From the NCBI GenBank assembly GCA_000091205.1, contig AP006502.2: DNA of 64,000 bases. The stretch is one strand, 5' to 3'. The notes below the pieces were generated by a model. The model saw only the letters and a list, made by a program, of their open reading frames with translations, did not search any database and had not been told where the DNA came from. This DNA comes from Cyanidioschyzon merolae. Lineage: Eukaryota. Shown here in pieces: positions 7,099-63,670 of this stretch. Each line of letters opens with the position of its first letter. Within the stretch, counting starts at the first letter, position 1. The position numbers were made by a program, and so were the translations under genes.

Positions 7099-7192
7099 CA
7101 AGAAGAAGAATAGAGGCGATAGACGAGAATAGACGTTCGCCCGACGTGACAATGCCGAGACTGAAACGACACAGAGGGCACGAGTTCCACCT

Positions 7193-7420
7193 ATGCTCCC
7201 AGTGGTGCATTCCACCGGCGGCAATAAACACATAGAGCTCGTGGACCGGGACTTCAACGCTGCCATCAATATCAGACGACTTGTGGCGCTGAAGACGAGA
7301 CCCGCGGAGCTGACACGATCTAACTTTGCGGGGCAGCCTCTCAGGCTCGAAATGTGCTTGGATATACTGAAACTGATTGCAGGCGGCGAGGCGAAAAGGC
7401 TGGACGTCGTCTGCGACTAG
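7193..7420 (+). pseudogene. TnpB/Fanzor-like C-terminal fragment with the RuvC-III motif
   Basis: 'HIELVDRDFNAAINIRRLVALKTRPAELTRSNFAGQPLRLE' matches the C-terminus of the longer copies ('EFVNRDFNAAINI...RPPELTRENFVGQ'). A degenerate 'FHLCSQWC' zinc-finger remnant lies in another frame just upstream. Confidence 0.55.
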
Positions 7421-7499
7421 GTTAACAAACTTACCCTCTATAGTTGTGAAATGTTTATCATTTTGCAGATTATAGTTAGGCGTATGTTCGCTGAACGCC

Positions 7500-7600
7500 A
7501 TTCTACAGACAAACGACGCCAGCAGTGTACAGTAGTGGCGAGAAGCCCGCCCTAGACGAAACGTCTCCAACTGACGTGCAGACGCCTCCCCGTCATTTTG
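7500..7600 (-). ncRNA. Candidate omega-RNA-like scaffold: conserved 3' tail of copy A
   Basis: After the 'GGRSK' codons the three copies' protein sequences diverge by frameshift. Nucleotide identity (about 85%) continues for about 100 nt through 'ccactactgtacac(t/c)gctg' before flanking sequence diverges. Confidence 0.3.
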
Positions 7601-8394
7601 GACCGGCCACCCAATACTGCCTCCAACTTTTTCTCATGTAGTTCGAGTTTGAGAAGTTGTCCAACAAAGTTCTCTCGTGTGAGTTCCGGAGGTCTCATCT
7701 CCAGCACCGCACATCTACTTATATTGATAGCGGCGTTAAAGTCTCGGTTCACGAACTCCACCCGTTTCTTGCCACTGATCGGACTAATTAATGCGAGTAG
7801 TCCACGAACGTTCGCCCTCCTTTCCATTTGCTCCTCCGTCAGCGGTCCGTACTTTGCTATTTCCTCAGGGCTCCTCTGGCGCTTCTCCATCTCGACCCTT
7901 TGAAGTGTGCACCCCAGTTCATGGTGTGTATACGATGTTCGGAACTCATCTATCGGGGTTGTAACGAACCGCCATGCGCACTCCTTGTACGTTCTTGTCG
8001 TTGGAGCTGGCATAGTCCCTTTTTGGGTCTTCCATCGCCCTGCTCCGCACGCTACTATCAGCCTCTGACTTTGATTCTCTTTGAGGGCACTCAACTGATT
8101 GAAAAAGTCCGCGAACGCCCGCTCCCTCTACCCGTATGGATTCATACGCAGACGAGCCAACCGAGGCTTCGTATACTCCTCCCAGAGCGCATCCCAATGC
8201 GCAACGCGAACATCCATGAATTTTCGAAAAGCTTCAAAGTCCGCTCCTCGGCTCGTGACCTCGCTCAAAGCTGCCAGGTGATCCTTCATTCCTGAATTCC
8301 AATTCTCGATTTTCTTCCTCGCATTCATTATACCGGATTCTCGATCGTATTTGGCTCTCGAGAACCTCAAAAGACGCATGTCTTTCCGACGCAA
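7552..8394 (-). pseudogene. TnpB/Fanzor-like RuvC nuclease ORF interrupted by an in-frame TAG (ORFs 8128..8394 and 7552..8094 share one frame)
   Basis: '...ARLRMNPYG*RERAFADFFNQLSALKENQSQRLIVACGAGRWKTQKG...IDEFRTSYTHHELGC...KKRVEFVNRDFNAAINI'. The stop falls at 8128-8130. The downstream ORF begins at a TTG, not ATG. Confidence 0.6.
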
Positions 8395-8498
8395 ATTACC
8401 GTCAGTGCCATCTTCCGAACGCTCCGGGCCTGCACCTTAGAGATATTCGGCGCCAGTTTGCCTCAGCTGGGCATGCTCTGCTGCGTTTTGTGACGGAT

Positions 8499-9917: not shown

Positions 9918-10619
9918 ATCTAGCTGTGGCGAATGCCTCGTGGCTTCCCTGGTCCATGTATTCTGCTGGGGTTCCTCGCCCGCTGTACTCCTTTGGTGCT
10001 CGCGCGTGTTGCAGTGTTCGCCGCTTTTTTCTTCGCCCAGCTCTCCCTCTCGAGATAGCGTCGCACGCACGCTGGACCGGAAACGAGTCATCAACCGATT
10101 ACACGGAGAGAGGGCCGGTCCGCTGCACACGGACAACGCCACCGGGCACCGTTGCTGCCACACGGTCGACGGCAGCAGCCACGCAACGGTCATCTGGTCT
10201 GGTTCAGCTCTACCAGAAAACAAAAGCATAGTCCCAGTGAGTGACAACTGATCCGACGCAGCCTCACTCGAAGACGCAATCACACGCGCACCTCGCAAAA
10301 AGCAGAACCGTTCAGTGGACGACAATTTCGGAACGTCGCAGGTCACTGCGAAGCTATGATGCGCTGTGCCGCTGCGCTCCAGAGTTGCAAACACTCGCCC
10401 GTTCTTTCGGGGCGCAGCGTAGCCCGGTGCTCCAGTGTGCTTCCAGAGGTCCTTCTTGTACGTCTGAAACGTTTCTACGAAACCACTGAACAGCTTTCTA
10501 TCGTCCAACACGAAACTCAGGAGCTTCAGTCCTTGAGCGAACGAGCATGAGCTTCGTGCTCGCGAGCAGTTCGAGATAGGACGTTTTGGATCAAACGAGG
10601 ATCCGTCGCTGAGTTCGCG

Positions 10620-10730
10620 CACCCCTGGAAGCAAACGCCTTTCGAAAGTCGAACAACAGCGGTGTACAGTAGTGGCGGCAAACGCGCCCTAGACAAGAAG
10701 TCTCCAACCGAGATGCAGACGCCTCCCAGG
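10620..10730 (-). ncRNA. Candidate omega-RNA-like scaffold: conserved 3' tail of copy B
   Basis: Aligns base-for-base with 7500-7600, 'ggtggccggtc.aaa...ggaggcgtctgca...gttggagac...gtctagggcg...gccactactgtacac'. Confidence 0.3.
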
Positions 10731-11635
10731 TTTTTTTCGACCGGCCACCCACTACTGCTTCCAATCTTGTCTCATATAGCTCGACTTTGAGAGGTTGTCC
10801 AACAAAGTCCTCTCTTGTCCACTCTGGAGGTCTCGTCTCCAGCACCGCATATTTCCTTATATTGATTGCGGCGTTATAGTCACGATTCACAAACTCCATA
10901 CGTTTCGTGCCATTGATTGTAATTAATAATGCGAGTAGCCCTCGCACTTTCTTCCTTCTTTGCATTTGCTCTTCCGTCAGCGGTCCGTATTTTGCTATAT
11001 CCTCAGGGCTCCTCTGGCACTTTTCCATCTCCACTCTCTGAAGTGTACAACCCAGCTCATAGTGTATATACGATGTTCGGAACTCATCTACAGGTATGGT
11101 AACAAAACGCCTTGCGCACTCTTTGTATGTTCTTGTCGTTGGAGCTGGCGTAGCTCCTTTTTGGGTCTTCCAGCGCACCGCCCCATACGCTACTACGAGC
11201 CTTTGATTTCATTCTCCTTCAGGGCACTCAACCCATTGAAAAAGTTGGCAAACGCCCGCTACCTCCCACCGTATAGATTCATACGCAAACGAGCCCACCG
11301 GGGCTTGGTATACTCCTCCCATAGCGCCTCCCAGTGAGCAACACGAACTTCTATGAATTTCCGAAAAGCTTTAAAGTCCGCTCCTCGGCTCGTCACCTCG
11401 CTCAAAGCTTCCAGGTGCTCTTTCATTCCTGAGTTCCAAGTCTCGATTTTCTTCCTCGCATTCATAATACCGGATTCTCGATAGTATCTTGCTCTCGAGA
11501 GCCTCAAAAGACGCATGTCTTTCTGACGTAAGTTACCATCAGTCCCATCTTCCGCACACTTTGGTACAGCGATGGTTATGATGTTCGTATTCCCAGGGTC
11601 CGCGCCAACGACAAAGTCGTTATCCTGCACCTCCT

Positions 11636-11828
11636 GCATCGCAAGATCCGCACCCTTCTCATCTACATCCTTCGCCGAGCCGTCTACAAGGTTGTACTTT
11701 TCCACTTCCTGCGTCGCAGGATCCGCATCCTTATCATCTACATCCTTCGCCGAGCCGTCTACAAGGTCGTCATCCTCCACTTCCTTCGTCGCAGGATCCG
11801 CATCCTTCTCATCTATATTCTTCGCCAC
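11636..11828 (-). repeat. 75-nt tandem repeat (about 2.5 units) encoding an acidic peptide repeat at the N-terminus of copy B
   Basis: The unit 'gcaggatccgcatcctt.tcatctacatccttcgccgagccgtctacaaggt.gt.......ccacttcct.cgtc' repeats. The peptide reads 'DEKDADPATKEVEDDDLVDGSAKDV', 'DDKDADPATQEVEKYNLVDGSAKDV', 'DEKGADLAMQEVQDNDFVVGADPG'. Confidence 0.7.
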
Positions 11829-11839
11829 GGGCGAAGCCG

Positions 11840-12880
11840 AGGACGGACCAGGAGGCGAGCCCGACGGCGCTGGAGGCGCAGAAGAACGCGTTTGCCGTTG
11901 GCGTGGACTCTGCGAACACGAACATCGTTACCATTGCAGCACCCAAGCGTGAGGAAGATGGCTCTGTCGGCAACTTATGTCAGAAAGACATAAGACTGTT
12001 GAAGCTCTCATGAGCGAGATATTACCGAGAATCCGGTATAATGAATGCGACGAAGAAAAGTGAGACATCGAATTCAGGGGTTAAGTGAATTTGGAAGCGA
12101 TCAGCCGGGTGACGAGCCGCGGAGCCGATATTTAAGCGTTTCCAGAGGCTATGAGCACTCACGCATCTGAAGTCGAGAGCCTTTGGAAAGAATGCACAAA
12201 GTTCAGGTGGGCTCGTCTGCGTATGAACCTGTACTGTAGGAAGCAGCGAGCATACGCCAGCTTTTTCATTCAATTGAGCGCCCTCAAGGAGGACAGGAGC
12301 CAAAGGCTCGTAGTAGCATACGGGGCAGGTCGATGGATCACCCAAAAAGGGTGTACACCAGCCTCCAACGACAAGAACGTACAAGGAGTGCGCACACCGT
12401 TATGTCAAAACACCTTTAGATGAGTTTCGAACATCTTCTACACACCACGAGCTGTGTTGTACACTTCAGAGGGTCGCGATGGAGAAAAGCCAGCGGCTCG
12501 CTGACGGAAATGCAAATGGCAAGGAGGGCGAAACTTCGAGGACTACTCGCTTTGGTTAATAAAACTAATGATAGGAAGAAACGAATAGAGTTCCTGGACT
12601 GAGACTTTAACGCCGCCATCAGTATAAGGAAATGTGCAGTACTGGAAAGAAGACCCCCGGAGTTGGCGAGAGCCAACTTTGCGAGGCAACCTCCCAAAAT
12701 GGAGTGATACGAGAAGAAGTTGAAACCAGTAGTAGGTGGCCAGTTGCGGAACGCCGGCACAGGCGTCTGCACATCATTGGGTAGACAATCGGTCTACGAC
12801 GGACGGTGTGAGAAACGCCACTCCTGTACACTGGCTTTCCAGCGTTTCTCTTTTGCAAGGCGTTTGGTGGTGTTTCCAGA
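11840..12880 (+). mobile_element. TnpB/Fanzor-like element copy C, inverted and immediately head-to-head with copy B
   Basis: Frame-corrected translation gives 'AFAVGVDSANTNIVTIAAPKREEDGSVGNLCQKDIRLLKLS*ARYYRESGIMNATKK...'. ORF 12151..12423 reads 'WARLRMNLY...SALKEDRSQRLVVAYGAGRWITQKG', then frameshifts. ORF 12420..12602 is followed by '*DFNAAISIRKCAVLERRPPELARANFARQ'. Confidence 0.6.
12715..12880 (+). ncRNA. Candidate omega-RNA-like scaffold: conserved 3' tail of copy C
   Basis: 'ggtggcc...ggcgtctgcac...ccactcctgtacactgg...aaggcgtttg...ttccagagg' matches the reverse complement of the A and B tails. Confidence 0.25.
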
Positions 12881-13923
12881 GGCGAATTGTTTATCAAAAA
12901 CGTCTTCTATCGATCTTCGAAACCAACGTGCTGCTTCCTCTGTGCGGCACGGGGCGTACGCTATGCGCTTTTCTGCTGATTGACAGCGGAAGCGACGAGT
13001 CCGGTTACTGCCTTGAAGACTTAGACGCTTTGGAGAGACCATCACGTGGATTGTTTCAGTTTTCTGACCTCCTCCTAACCACCACGCTCGGCTCTCTGTT
13101 GCAATGGCACGCGCAGCAGCTCTCATGGCAGCCAAAGCTGAACCCGGGCATCGAGAGAGTGGAAAGCTGCATCAAAGGTGGCGCAAAGCCAAGGAAGCCG
13201 GTCATCTAAGCAAGCTTGCATCGCCTGCAGAGCTGCGAGCACTCGTCCAAGCGAAACTGACACCCGAGGAGCAAGAGCGTTTCGGGATGCAGTGTGCAGG
13301 GCTGGCCGCCAAGGCACTTGAGGTACTCGACAAGTCGCTTACATCTTTAGAGCAAGACATAGAGAGCGAGTCGTGTGACTGGGAAATAGAATCGGACGCT
13401 GCTATGGACCGTGTTGCGAGACGATTCCTTGCCGATCTCGAACAGCTAAAGCAGACTGGCAGCACGCGTCGACTCACCCAACTCAGTATTTGGCGTCGCA
13501 TCAGTCGCTATGTCTTACTGGCGGAAAGGCGAGCATGAACTGCAGGCTGAAGGCAGTCCTTTTGTGAGGCAAGTCGCGAAGATCGCGGACCAGGCATCCA
13601 AGACTCCGGAATACCGCCAGGTCGTTGCCTGCGGGCATCTGGAAGAGCTCGCAGATGCGGCAACTGCAGATGGTGTATTCGGTTCGCAGTCGCGGTCGAT
13701 GTCACGTATCTTACGTCGCCCAGAAAGTCGGTTTCGACTCTTGCTCACGAAACTAGAGCTTGGTGAGGAGCTCTGCACACGCGACGAGCGGCGTTTGATG
13801 CTGGCATTGGATACCTCTGATGCGAGACTTGAACCCGAACGCATGCGCTCGAAGAAGAGGGCACCTGGTGGAGCGCAGGATGGCGCCTCTGCAAAGCGCG
13901 ACCACGGGAGGTCTGCATCCGTT

Positions 13924-18499: not shown

Positions 18500-19800
18500 G
18501 AATAGAATGTTAGATATATATTCTTTACTGAACAGTGCAAGGAGGACTGCATTCCTCGTTCAGGTACGGTTCACCACAGTATTCAGATGGACGAGGAAAA
18601 CTGAAATAAAGAAGCAAGTACATGCGATCCACACCGAAACCAGATATACTCATAGCGTGCTTGCGTTCACTGGTAGAAAAACGACCCGTTGATTACTTTA
18701 GGGAAGGGGAAAGCGACGATAATACCCATTACCTCTATCTATTTTTCTCGCCAGCTAATTCGTGTGATCCTGAATGCACTGGCATACAGTCGCGATAAAG
18801 TCCTGGTTCATGCACAGCCGTCTTGTATCGAATTCGCAACGACAGCGTTCCCGGAACGTCCCGATCGGTACGAAGCACAGAGACGTAGCTCTGTCTTTTT
18901 CAGACGATGCGACTTTCTTTGGCCGAAATGGTCGGGGCGTACATGGGTAGTCGCGGAGATGGAGCCAGCTGTATGTATGATCGAACTTGATGAGAGCGAG
19001 GACATCATCAACTGTTTCAGCTGCAGTGGATTCATTTGGCGGCCGCAGTTTCGCTCAGAGAGAAGGCTCGTCGAACAGCACACACTGTACCGAATCATTG
19101 AAGAAATTTCCCCTGACGTCTGACGACGTCGTCCGGTTGTACGGCTTGGTATTTCACCATTCCCCTTGCGTTCGAATGTTTGCTGATTCGATCGGGGAAT
19201 AGAGCTGCTTTTCATTCCTCGATATAATCCGTGGTTGAGCCCCATAGAAAGTGTTTTTTCTATTATGAGACGTTTTTAATGCTCAACGGGGCGAGTCGCT
19301 GCAGCGTTCAGCACACATTGGTACCTGGCCACATTGTGTCCTTCGTCTGCAAGCCCTTCTCGCTCCGGTTAGCTCCTCATCTAACGGCATAAAGAAGCGC
19401 GCCATTTGAAGAAATAAGAAATCCAAGGGATGAGCTGCGGTGTACACTTCAGAACATCGAGATAGAGAGAAGGCAGCGGAGCGCATCGCGCGATAGAAAA
19501 GTACGGAGAGCTGACAGAGCAGTCAATGGTACTGAGTACTCGTGTTCTGGCAATCCTTGCATGGGTGAGTTCAACAAGCGGCATTATATGCGAGGAGTTC
19601 GTGAAACGAGACTCCAACGTCACCTTCAGTATCCGACGATATATAGTGCTGAAGAAGAGAACCGAGGAGCTGACGCGATACAGGTTTATGGGGCAGTCTC
19701 TCAGACTTGAGGTGTGCAGGAGGAAGCTGACGTCAATAGGTGGTGGTCGGTCGAAAAAGGCTTCACCTCTGCGAAAATTGCTTCGCCCATAACTTGCGTT
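18500..19800 (+). mobile_element. Decayed, diverged TnpB/Fanzor-like element (copy E), the same subfamily as copy D, in an AT-rich island
   Basis: 'SLLNSARRTAFLVQV' (18507..18692) and 'RTSSTVSAAVDSFGGRSFAQRE' (18987..19202) parallel copy D. The 3' fragment 19526..19792 'EFVKRDSNVTFSIRRYIVLKKRTEELTRYRFMGQSLRLEV' is a degenerate RuvC-III tail. Nucleotide similarity 19320-19450 against 6840-6960. Confidence 0.45.
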
Positions 19801-40694: not shown

Positions 40695-40990
40695 CAGGTG
40701 CTTTTTCGCGGTTTTGTAGCGGTTGCGGTCGAAGTGCGTTCATTTTCAAACATAAGATACCCTAGGGAAAGGTGCGGACATAAAATTCGGGGAACTTGGA
40801 GGGCGGCATTGCTGGGTTCTACAAAAAACCCGAAAGAAGTCCATGTTCTCGCTGACCCGCGCGCGAAGCAGAGCGAGTGACGGACAGGAAGAAGAAGAAG
40901 AAGGAGATAGAGGAAACACTGTTTGCCTGACAAGTCGATGACGAGACTGCATTAGCACAGAGGGTATGCGTTCGAGGAATCCTTGCAATA

Positions 40991-41221
40991 TTGAGTTCCC
41001 CTAGAGGCAGTGCATGTAAGGAGTTCGTAAACCTGAACGCTAACGCTGCTTCAAGTATAAGACGACGTGCTGTGCTGAGGACGAAACTCGAGGACCTGAC
41101 GCGAACCAGCATCGTCGGGCAGCCTCTCAGGCTCGAAGTATGCCTCGATAAACCGAAATCGATAGCAGGCGGCCAGTCAAAACAGGCTGGAAGGCGTCTG
41201 CGAGGGCGTAGATATATATAA
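40991..41221 (+). pseudogene. Isolated degenerate TnpB/Fanzor-like C-terminal fragment
   Basis: 'EFVNLNANAASSIRRRAVLRTKLEDLTRTSIVGQPLRLEVCLDKPKSIAGGQSK' parallels '...EFVNRDFNAAINI...RPPELTRENFVGQLLKLEL...AVLGGRSK'. Confidence 0.4.
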
Positions 41222-63229: not shown

Positions 63230-63670
63230 GATAAATGAATACCTACTCACAGACGCTTCCCAGTCTTTTCCGACCGGCAGCCTGCTATCGGCTTCAGCTT
63301 CTCCTTGTACACTTTGAGCCTGAAAGGTTGCCCCATGAAGTTGGATCACCTCAGGTCCGCAGATCTCGTCTTCTGCACCGCATATCGTCTGGCGTGGATG
63401 GCGGCGTTGAAGTCTCGGTTCACGACCTCCATGCGTTTATTGCAGCTGGTTGGACTCACTATCGCGAGGCTCACTCGAACTTTTGCATTCTGTACCACTA
63501 CAGTCCCGCCATTGGCCTGTCGAGCAAACACCTTTTTTTTTGTCAGTGTCCCTCTTCTTCGTCACTTGCTCTTCTTCGTTCGATGGCCGGCGAGCATATT
63601 GTTTTCGTCCATTTCGGGCGCCCGGCGATGACGGGCCTGCAGGATCCTCGACTGCCATGTGCATAACTGT
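63230..63670 (-). mobile_element. Degenerate TnpB/Fanzor-like 3' fragment (copy G)
   Basis: ORF 63346..63531 reads 'NKRMEVVNRDFNAAIHARRYAVQKTRSADLR'. The upstream frame has a Cys-rich remnant 'GVCSTGQWRDCSGTECK', a possible zinc-finger relic. Antisense frames match those of copy A (7034..7570). Confidence 0.45.

Follow-up and report, generated by a model that had tools for sequence, protein, structure and literature searches.

The window, that is, the whole stretch of 64,000 nucleotides analysed here, has a GC content of about 56% and carries long, intron-less genes of eukaryotic type, among them those for MetAP1 with zf-C6H2, PRP3, a DEAD-box helicase and a class II DAHP synthase. The closest named relative of this MetAP1 comes from Cyanidium caldarium (65% identity), several other red algae reach about 55%, and 100% identity was found only to a protein from a JGI metagenome of the hot-spring type. 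Judged by these sequences, the host points to an intron-poor eukaryote, namely a cyanidiophycean-type red alga. Cyanidiophycean red algae are known from hot, acidic springs.

The three similar tails to which an earlier note on this DNA drew attention correspond to the final 97 bases of a Fanzor1 (eukaryotic TnpB-like) mobile element that is present here in three decayed copies, called A, B and C (Table 1). Within the window, the covariance model R1 recovered the module formed by these bases in A, B and C only; a marginal match at 1520-1609 (E=0.15) lies antisense within a kinase ORF and was dismissed. The right end of copy A abuts the tail of copy D, and the flank directly following copy A is the reverse complement of the tail of this different Fanzor fragment. 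In the D-type family, the stop codon (TGA) comes right after ...GRRL and is followed by the hairpins GGGTA...TACCC and GAAACG-TTTT-CGTTTC and the end ...ACTGA, and the presence of two different hairpins after the stop suggests an architecture conserved despite sequence turnover. As three further short fragments lie beside A to D, the window holds at least seven fragments of the superfamily, mostly 3' ends, which, together with 524 loci in metagenomes, characterizes the element as multi-copy in a eukaryotic genome.

Table 1. Fanzor-derived copies, right-end modules and their parts in the window
Feature	Position	Strand	Remarks
Copy D	7157-7456	+	more diverged Fanzor fragment, ~70% nucleotide identity to its own relatives; tail-to-tail with copy A
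Flank directly 3' of copy A right end	7474..7493	-	CAGCGAACATACGCCTAACT
Copy A	7494-8434	-	span by homology to copy B
Copy A right-end module	7494..7590	-	97 nt; R1 106 bits, E=1e-24; candidate ωRNA scaffold
Copy A module, H3	7494-7520		
Copy A module, conserved block	7525-7540		CGCCACTACTGTACAC
Copy A module, H2	~7533-7554		
Copy A module, ancestral stop	7552-7554		TAG
Copy A module, H1	~7558-7588		
Copy A body	7591..8434	-	5'-truncated Fanzor1 pseudogene; ORFs 7552-8094 and 8128-8394
Copy B	10634-~11850	-	
Copy B right-end module	10634..10727	-	94 nt; R1 95 bits, E=6e-22
Copy B body	10728..11850	-	Fanzor1 pseudogene; RuvC-I (GADPGNTN) retained
Copy C	11869-12864	+	inverted relative to A and B
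Copy C body	11869..12757	+	heavily degenerate Fanzor1 pseudogene, many stops; head-to-head with copy B; inverted repeats
Copy C right-end module	12758..12864	+	107 nt, degenerate; R1 35.6 bits, E=3e-7
Short 3'-terminal Fanzor fragment	19396-19759	+	35-45% amino acid identity to copy B
Short 3'-terminal Fanzor fragment	40889-41203	+	35-45% amino acid identity to copy B
Short 3'-terminal Fanzor fragment	63241-63529	-	35-45% amino acid identity to copy B

Copies A, B and C are 5'-truncated, frameshifted pseudogenes of an element that measures approximately 3-3.7 kb in its full-length form, and they are non-functional relics. The RuvC-II/III region is present in copy A (VDEFRTS, NRDFNAAINI), which has an internal stop near 8128; copy B is interrupted by a stop and a frameshift between 11178 and 11259 and has acquired a +1 insertion in an A-run directly upstream of its right-end module. 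The RuvC catalytic set is intact in none of these three copies, as the RuvC-I aspartate is missing from A, and stops and frameshifts break up B and C. A and B share 84% of their nucleotides over 931 nt (blastn) and 78% of their amino acids (tblastn), and copy C matches either of them at about 72-74% (blastn, 72% over 904 nt). Of the three tails, for which an identity of about 85% had been given, those of A and B are 81% identical over 80 nt (7520-7599 and 10657-10736), and C reaches just about 72-74% to either. This likeness among A, B and C is inherited and not maintained by selection. Copy B additionally contains three tandem 75-nt repeats at 11600-11826 on the minus strand, which encode 25-aa acidic repeats (…DEKDADPATQEVEDNDLVVD…) just before RuvC-I and whose number differs between relatives, with up to about seven in the relative P0001. 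The head-to-head joint of B and C spans 11428-12078, where both copies are cut off within the repeat/RuvC-I region and the inverted arms (11428-11637 and 11869-12078) are 80% complementary.

A search of 5.8 billion proteins yielded 280 close relatives of the nuclease, nearly all of them from JGI metagenomes, and an exhaustive profile search of protein-cluster representatives found 1480, many with a length of 600-740 aa. A profile of 28 relatives matched the PDB sequences of Parasitella parasitica Fz1 (9cf0, E=5e-21) and Guillardia theta Fz1 (9cer, E=1.5e-7), and the family motifs GADPGNTN, VDEFRTS and NRDFNAAINI aligned to DPGR, DEFRTS and NRD of PpFz1. The RuvC catalytic residues, i.e. the aspartate of RuvC-I, the relocated glutamate in DEFRTS and the aspartate in NRD, are present in the family consensus. 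Given these profile matches to solved Fanzor1 proteins and the aligned RuvC motifs, the nuclease family is, by homology, Fanzor1 with a predicted protein of about 800 aa, in agreement with the earlier assignment to Fanzor. Only the profile of distant relatives gave these matches; a close-family profile was uninformative against the PDB sequences, as was a single-sequence search with just E~1 to SpuFz1. Pfam returned nothing for the ORFs that belong to copies A, B and D in the window or for close full-length relatives, and its Cas12f1-like TNB model produced one sub-threshold match, in one distant relative. The consensus TNB/zinc-ribbon region (A2, A4) is without most of the CxxC cysteines of PpFz1 (…THHELGC…EKC…RGLLALVS; …SYTHHELGCTLQRVEMEKCQRS…VRGLLALVS…). 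The family thus differs from known Fanzor1 proteins in that the TNB zinc-finger cysteines are largely absent and that a variable array of 25-aa acidic repeats precedes RuvC-I. No fully intact nuclease ORF was found among approximately 80 loci, the longest uninterrupted one comprising 778 aa.

The shared codons up to ...GGRSK and a homologous stretch after them are present in all three copies, and the protein ends are those quoted earlier, with the ORF of A ending in GGRSKMTGRRLHVSWRRFV and B reading GGRSKKTWEASASRLETSCLG... Since intact metagenome relatives end in ...GGRSKKAGRRLHVSWRLLG or close variants, the ending of copy A (…MTGRRLHVSWRRFV*) represents the native frame and that of copy B is shifted by +1; its ancestral TAG (10689-10691) is out of frame. 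The protein divergence that had been taken as a sign of an RNA gene is a frameshift in a decaying pseudogene, and the tail is not kept better than the protein part, as the identity between A and B is 79% for the 97 nt of the module compared with 83% for the body of the gene. The module starts 35 nt before the nuclease stop codon (GGAGGCGTCTGCAC...), extends 59 nt past it and ends sharply at ...GGCGTT. Describing the whole tail as non-coding is correct only for these approximately 59 nt, because the first 35-45 nt or so after GGRSK are coding in intact relatives. The block CCACTACTGTACACYGCTG, at which the earlier note had let the identity end, does occur at 7520-7538 and 10657-10675 (0.02 chance matches expected), but the identity continues for about 26 nt through a further hairpin to ...GGCGTT (7494 in A, 10634 in B, 12864 in C). 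For copy A, homology to all other copies ends at 7494. The tail of copy C was confirmed as well, albeit on the plus strand at 12758-12864 and inverted to A and B. Its module contains a 15-nt insertion within the H2 loop, and an orthologous copy with the same flank exists at metagenome locus L059; the module of copy B has a 3-nt deletion before H3, and its H1 and H3 are eroded.

A scan of JGI metagenomes yielded the 524 loci, and 79 of these were retrieved; among them, L065 represents the very locus that carries copies A and B in the window. The right edge of the element is sharp: BLAST coverage of the reference locus L002 by other loci drops from 92 to 1 within about 100 nt of the right end, and a common sharp 3' edge is found in approximately 50 independent loci. 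In about ten loci, homology is lost shortly after GTACAC. On the left, the edge is ragged and the sequence modular, at least two alternative 5' modules being present. Inspection by eye for a TAM showed that [C/G]AT recurs ahead of a T-run in the left flank of 9 out of 11 loci, at a boundary too fuzzy to call one. No inverted repeat joining both ends was found in four full-length loci, no target-site duplication was seen by eye at the left and right flanks examined, and no transposase gene was found in the element. A palindromic motif, AAACGTTT/AACGTT, is located near the left end (…GACAAAACGTTTAC…; e.g. L029 at ~2880, L061 at ~4026, L046 at ~3265), and motifs of this type are also part of two hairpins, namely the type II right-end hairpin and the terminal one of the D family; the motif could be a protein-binding site.

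Past GGCGTT, subfamilies share 9-20 nt, namely TTTCCAGGGG (as in B and C), GTTGGTGYG or GGTGGTGGCTTGTCCAT, and for this reason the junction between scaffold and guide is not cleanly defined. TTTCCAGGGG follows the module in about seven independent loci and G[T/A]TGGTG[T/C]G in about eleven; loci with such shared sequence comprise the window itself (10619-10633, 12865-12884), L038, L067, L079, L030 and L011 as well as L003, L016, L025, L032, L059 and L066. Either these sequences are ends of the element that are specific to subfamilies, or they represent a preferred target. A solo 97-nt module without nuclease ORF was detected at L030 3233-3329, L036 1233-1332 and L054 795-894, which count as a single case since the three represent one shared locus. 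It starts exactly at module position 1, its upstream sequence is unrelated and non-coding, and it has a host short-chain dehydrogenase gene on one side and a full Fanzor element on the other. A terminal hairpin without the upstream block was not found in 783 kb, which rules out H3 as an independent repeat or a pre-existing target.

Three further observations concern single loci or small sets of them. At L052 (652-797), the module has its final 49 nt (CGCCACTACTGTACAC...GGCGTT) twice in tandem, while L062 with the same flank has them once; the duplication is either genuine or was introduced by the assembly. The coding sequence GTGTACACTATCGGCG (…CVHYRR…), situated about 1.7 kb upstream of the right end, shows a 13/16 reverse-complement match to CGCCACTACTGTACAC in six loci (e.g. 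a minus-strand match at 3533 in L001), which may be due to chance. L001 and L002 are 99% identical in the element and the right flank and fully different upstream of L002:3946, where they carry other 5' modules; this probably reflects a repeat-induced assembly ambiguity, recombination between elements being the alternative, and the difference was left out of the analysis.

Nucleotide diversity was computed over approximately 42 independent metagenome copies. In the gene body, it amounts to 0.14, 0.11 and 0.26 at codon positions 1, 2 and 3, a periodicity that shows past selection at the protein level, and in the last 14 codons to 0.23, 0.21 and 0.24, i.e. the periodicity is gone. The entire 97-nt module has a diversity of 0.257, equal on average to that of synonymous sites (third codon positions, 0.262), and the conservation within it is uneven. 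Two blocks fall below third positions and are as little diverse as non-synonymous sites, GGAGGCGTCTGCACGTCAG (19 nt, over the last codons) with 0.149 (p=0.004) and CGCCACTACTGTACAC (16 nt) with 0.114 (p=0.0005), whereas variability is higher in the loop of H2 and over much of H3, and the module outside the two blocks is unconstrained. Diversity in the 30 nt past GGCGTT rises to 0.68, compared with 0.26 inside the module. The 97-nt module hence has a sharp 3' edge and is, at the nucleotide level, under some real constraint. Shared duplication, named earlier as the circumstance that would explain the conservation away, does fit the three window copies but not the two blocks constrained across the family.

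Most independent copies are predicted to form the same three hairpins. H1 (GGCGTCT...AGACGTT, 7-9 bp) lies over the last codons, H2 (GGCG(G/C)...(C/G)YCGCC) is extended by pairing of TAG, the stop codon, with CTA, and H3 (GGCGTCGTTCGA-CTT-TCGAACGGCGTT or the variant AACGTTTTTC-TTTT-GAAAGGCGTT) is situated at the element edge. The sense strand folds with a much lower mean minimum free energy than the antisense strand (-32.9 vs -26.3 kcal/mol, independent copies), the same holds for the three hairpins of copy A (-34.7 vs -18.3 kcal/mol), and six stem pairs of the consensus are G·U. The energies as such are ordinary, with z-scores of -1.1 for the consensus, -1.0 for A, +1.5 for B (-23.2 kcal/mol) and -1.5 for C. 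Pairing of the H1 loop with the conserved block to form a pseudoknot would involve just 4 bp (CAGU:ACUG) and is unconvincing, and Rfam 15 gave no match at the gathering threshold anywhere in the window.

The covariation check proposed by the earlier note gave weak results. In the sequence-based (MAFFT) alignment, 81.7% of the cells are paired compared with 80.7% in shuffles, the covariation score was reached by 116 of 500 shuffles, no measure was clearly above the shuffles, and RNAalifold recovered H2 alone. Only the alignment fitted to the structure model, which is biased toward the structure, gave significance, with none of 500 shuffles reaching the observed score. In this model-fitted alignment, most H3 pairs show changes on both sides, and in about half of the copies the centre of H3 contains a G·A mismatch. 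The inner pair of H2 is C-G in 26 copies and G-C in 17, and positions of H3 vary between A-U, G·U and G-C, with G-C to U-A swaps present. Derived G·U and A·C variants at Watson-Crick positions are equally frequent (37 each), which is a signature of neutral decay after insertion.

We compared the module with the ωRNAs of SpuFz1, GtFz1 and PpFz1 (Saito et al. 2023, PMC10432273; Xu et al. 2024, PMC11423790; Jiang et al. 2023, PMC10530073). Fanzor1 ωRNAs are encoded at the 3' end of the ORF, may overlap its last codons, 17 of them in GtFz1 (PMC10432273), and reach the right end of the transposon, so the location given by the earlier note fits the published systems (PMC10432273, PMC10530073, PMC11423790). 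They measure 75-150 nt and consist of a 7-bp SL1 and one to three more stem-loops, followed by a guide of 14-21 nt from the flank (PMC11423790, PMC10432273). The conserved part of the fRNA includes some coding sequence, and Chlamydomonas and Spizellomyces harbour solo fRNA or 'ghost' copies (PMC10530073, PMC10432273). The module described here resembles these ωRNAs in several respects: the nuclease belongs to the same family by profile homology, the module lies at the 3' end of the ORF over about the last 12 codons and reaches the right edge of the element with a variable flank after it, the 97-nt scaffold is within the known size range, the predicted first stem of 7-9 bp is followed by more stem-loops, and one solo module parallels the Spu-1 'ghost' elements and the Chlamydomonas solo fRNA. 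Unlike SpuFz1 with its 30-nt inverted repeats, the element has no detected terminal inverted repeats, and unlike in known Fanzor1 ωRNAs, the 9-20 nt past the proposed scaffold end are common to subfamilies. A similar arrangement is found in IS200/IS605 (e.g. ISDra2), where the sequence for the TnpB ωRNA spans the 3' end of the nuclease gene together with the right end and the guide comes from the flank. IS200/IS605 elements likewise have subterminal hairpins, and they lack terminal inverted repeats and target-site duplications, neither of which was detected in our element. However, they are prokaryotic and come with a TnpA Y1 transposase, whereas no TnpA-like gene was seen here, the TnpB ωRNA overlaps far more of the ORF, and the sequence similarity of our family is to Fanzor1 and not directly to TnpB.

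Considering all this, the tails represent the right-end module of a multi-copy Fanzor1-type mobile element, and on balance this module is probably an ωRNA (fRNA) scaffold. In our assessment, this reading leans more on homology and position than on RNA-level evidence: the sharp edge, the two constrained blocks and the strand-asymmetric hairpins make it plausible, but covariation and folding energy are weak. The main rival, which we consider unlikely, holds that the module is a transposon right end at the DNA level only, in which the block and the terminal hairpin serve as recognition or cleavage signals without any guide RNA, comparable to the subterminal hairpins of IS200/IS605 right ends or to the 3' hairpin of Helitrons. 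Such an end would agree with the sharp 3' edge, with the weak RNA-structure statistics, with the AAACGTTT-type palindrome shared by the left end, the type II right-end hairpin and the terminal hairpin of the D family, and with the lack of inverted repeats linking the ends and of target-site duplications at the examined flanks, typical of single-strand mechanisms that use hairpins. It accounts less well for the G·U pairs in the consensus hairpins and their far weaker formation on the complementary strand, for the position of the most conserved parts (the 5' arm and loop of H1, and CGCCACTACTGTACAC) 30-95 nt inside the end, and for an element in which no transposase gene was detected. A Helitron 3' terminus has a hairpin near a CTRR end and neither terminal inverted repeats nor target-site duplications. 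Our element is similar in the hairpin beside the 3' end and in the failure to detect such repeats or duplications, and the D-type family ends in ...hairpin-ACTGA, but the main family ends in GGCGTT instead of CTRR, the flanks are not A/T, and Rep/helicase is missing. We therefore rejected a Helitron-like end as a superficial resemblance, the CTGA end being confined to the diverged D family, whose flanks misfit. A DNA-level end may coexist with an RNA function, and a DNA role would not exclude an RNA role, since the right end and the ωRNA overlap in all characterized TnpB/Fanzor systems (PMC10530073).

That the module has no function, the similarity merely reflecting the shared ancestry of decaying copies, appears improbable. 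Within the window, this explanation is in line with the pseudogene state of A, B and C and with a tail no better conserved than the body between A and B (79% vs 83%), and across the family with a module diversity equal to that of synonymous sites and with the balance of derived G·U and A·C variants; yet it leaves unexplained the two family-wide blocks with a diversity as low as that of non-synonymous sites (p=0.004 and p=0.0005), the common sharp 3' edge in approximately 50 independent loci and the retention of a 59-nt non-coding stretch in a family with selection on the protein. We give equally little weight to an ordinary 3'-UTR element of the nuclease mRNA that acts in stability, 3'-end formation or translation termination. 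The module indeed lies directly after and over the stop codon, with TAG pairing to CTA in H2, but its conserved region coincides with the edge of a mobile element and not with a variable poly(A) site, no canonical polyadenylation signal is evident from the consensus, one solo copy exists without an ORF, and it is the ωRNA that characterized Fanzor1 loci encode at the homologous position (PMC10432273).

If the module is an ωRNA scaffold, the 3' end of the mRNA would be bound and processed by the nuclease, and the resulting scaffold would comprise the stem-loops H1 (last codons), H2 (stop codon) and H3 (element edge), with approximately 15-20 nt of flank after it as the guide. For copy A, the guide would then be the flank listed in Table 1. 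It is conceivable, though we regard it as a long shot, that a Fanzor1 without terminal inverted repeats and target-site duplications, with a hairpin-terminated ωRNA right end and with hundreds of copies in a streamlined thermoacidophilic red alga, moves by an IS200/IS605-like single-strand mechanism or by homing driven by the guide RNA and not by a cut-and-paste transposase. Under such a mechanism, the shared post-module sequences TTTCCAGGGG and GTTGGTGYG would be a preferred, RNA-specified target.

For the annotation of the window, our results mean that 7.1-12.9 kb is a cluster of dead transposon fragments and not of genes. The right-end arrangement is already known in kind, and a further example is described here. 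If it does encode an ωRNA, it adds a Fanzor1 system from a cyanidiophycean-type red alga, in which hundreds of natural copies define a scaffold of approximately 97 nt together with the changes it tolerates. Such a system would lend itself to comparative studies of Fanzor ωRNAs and might also serve as an RNA-guided nuclease adapted to heat and acid.
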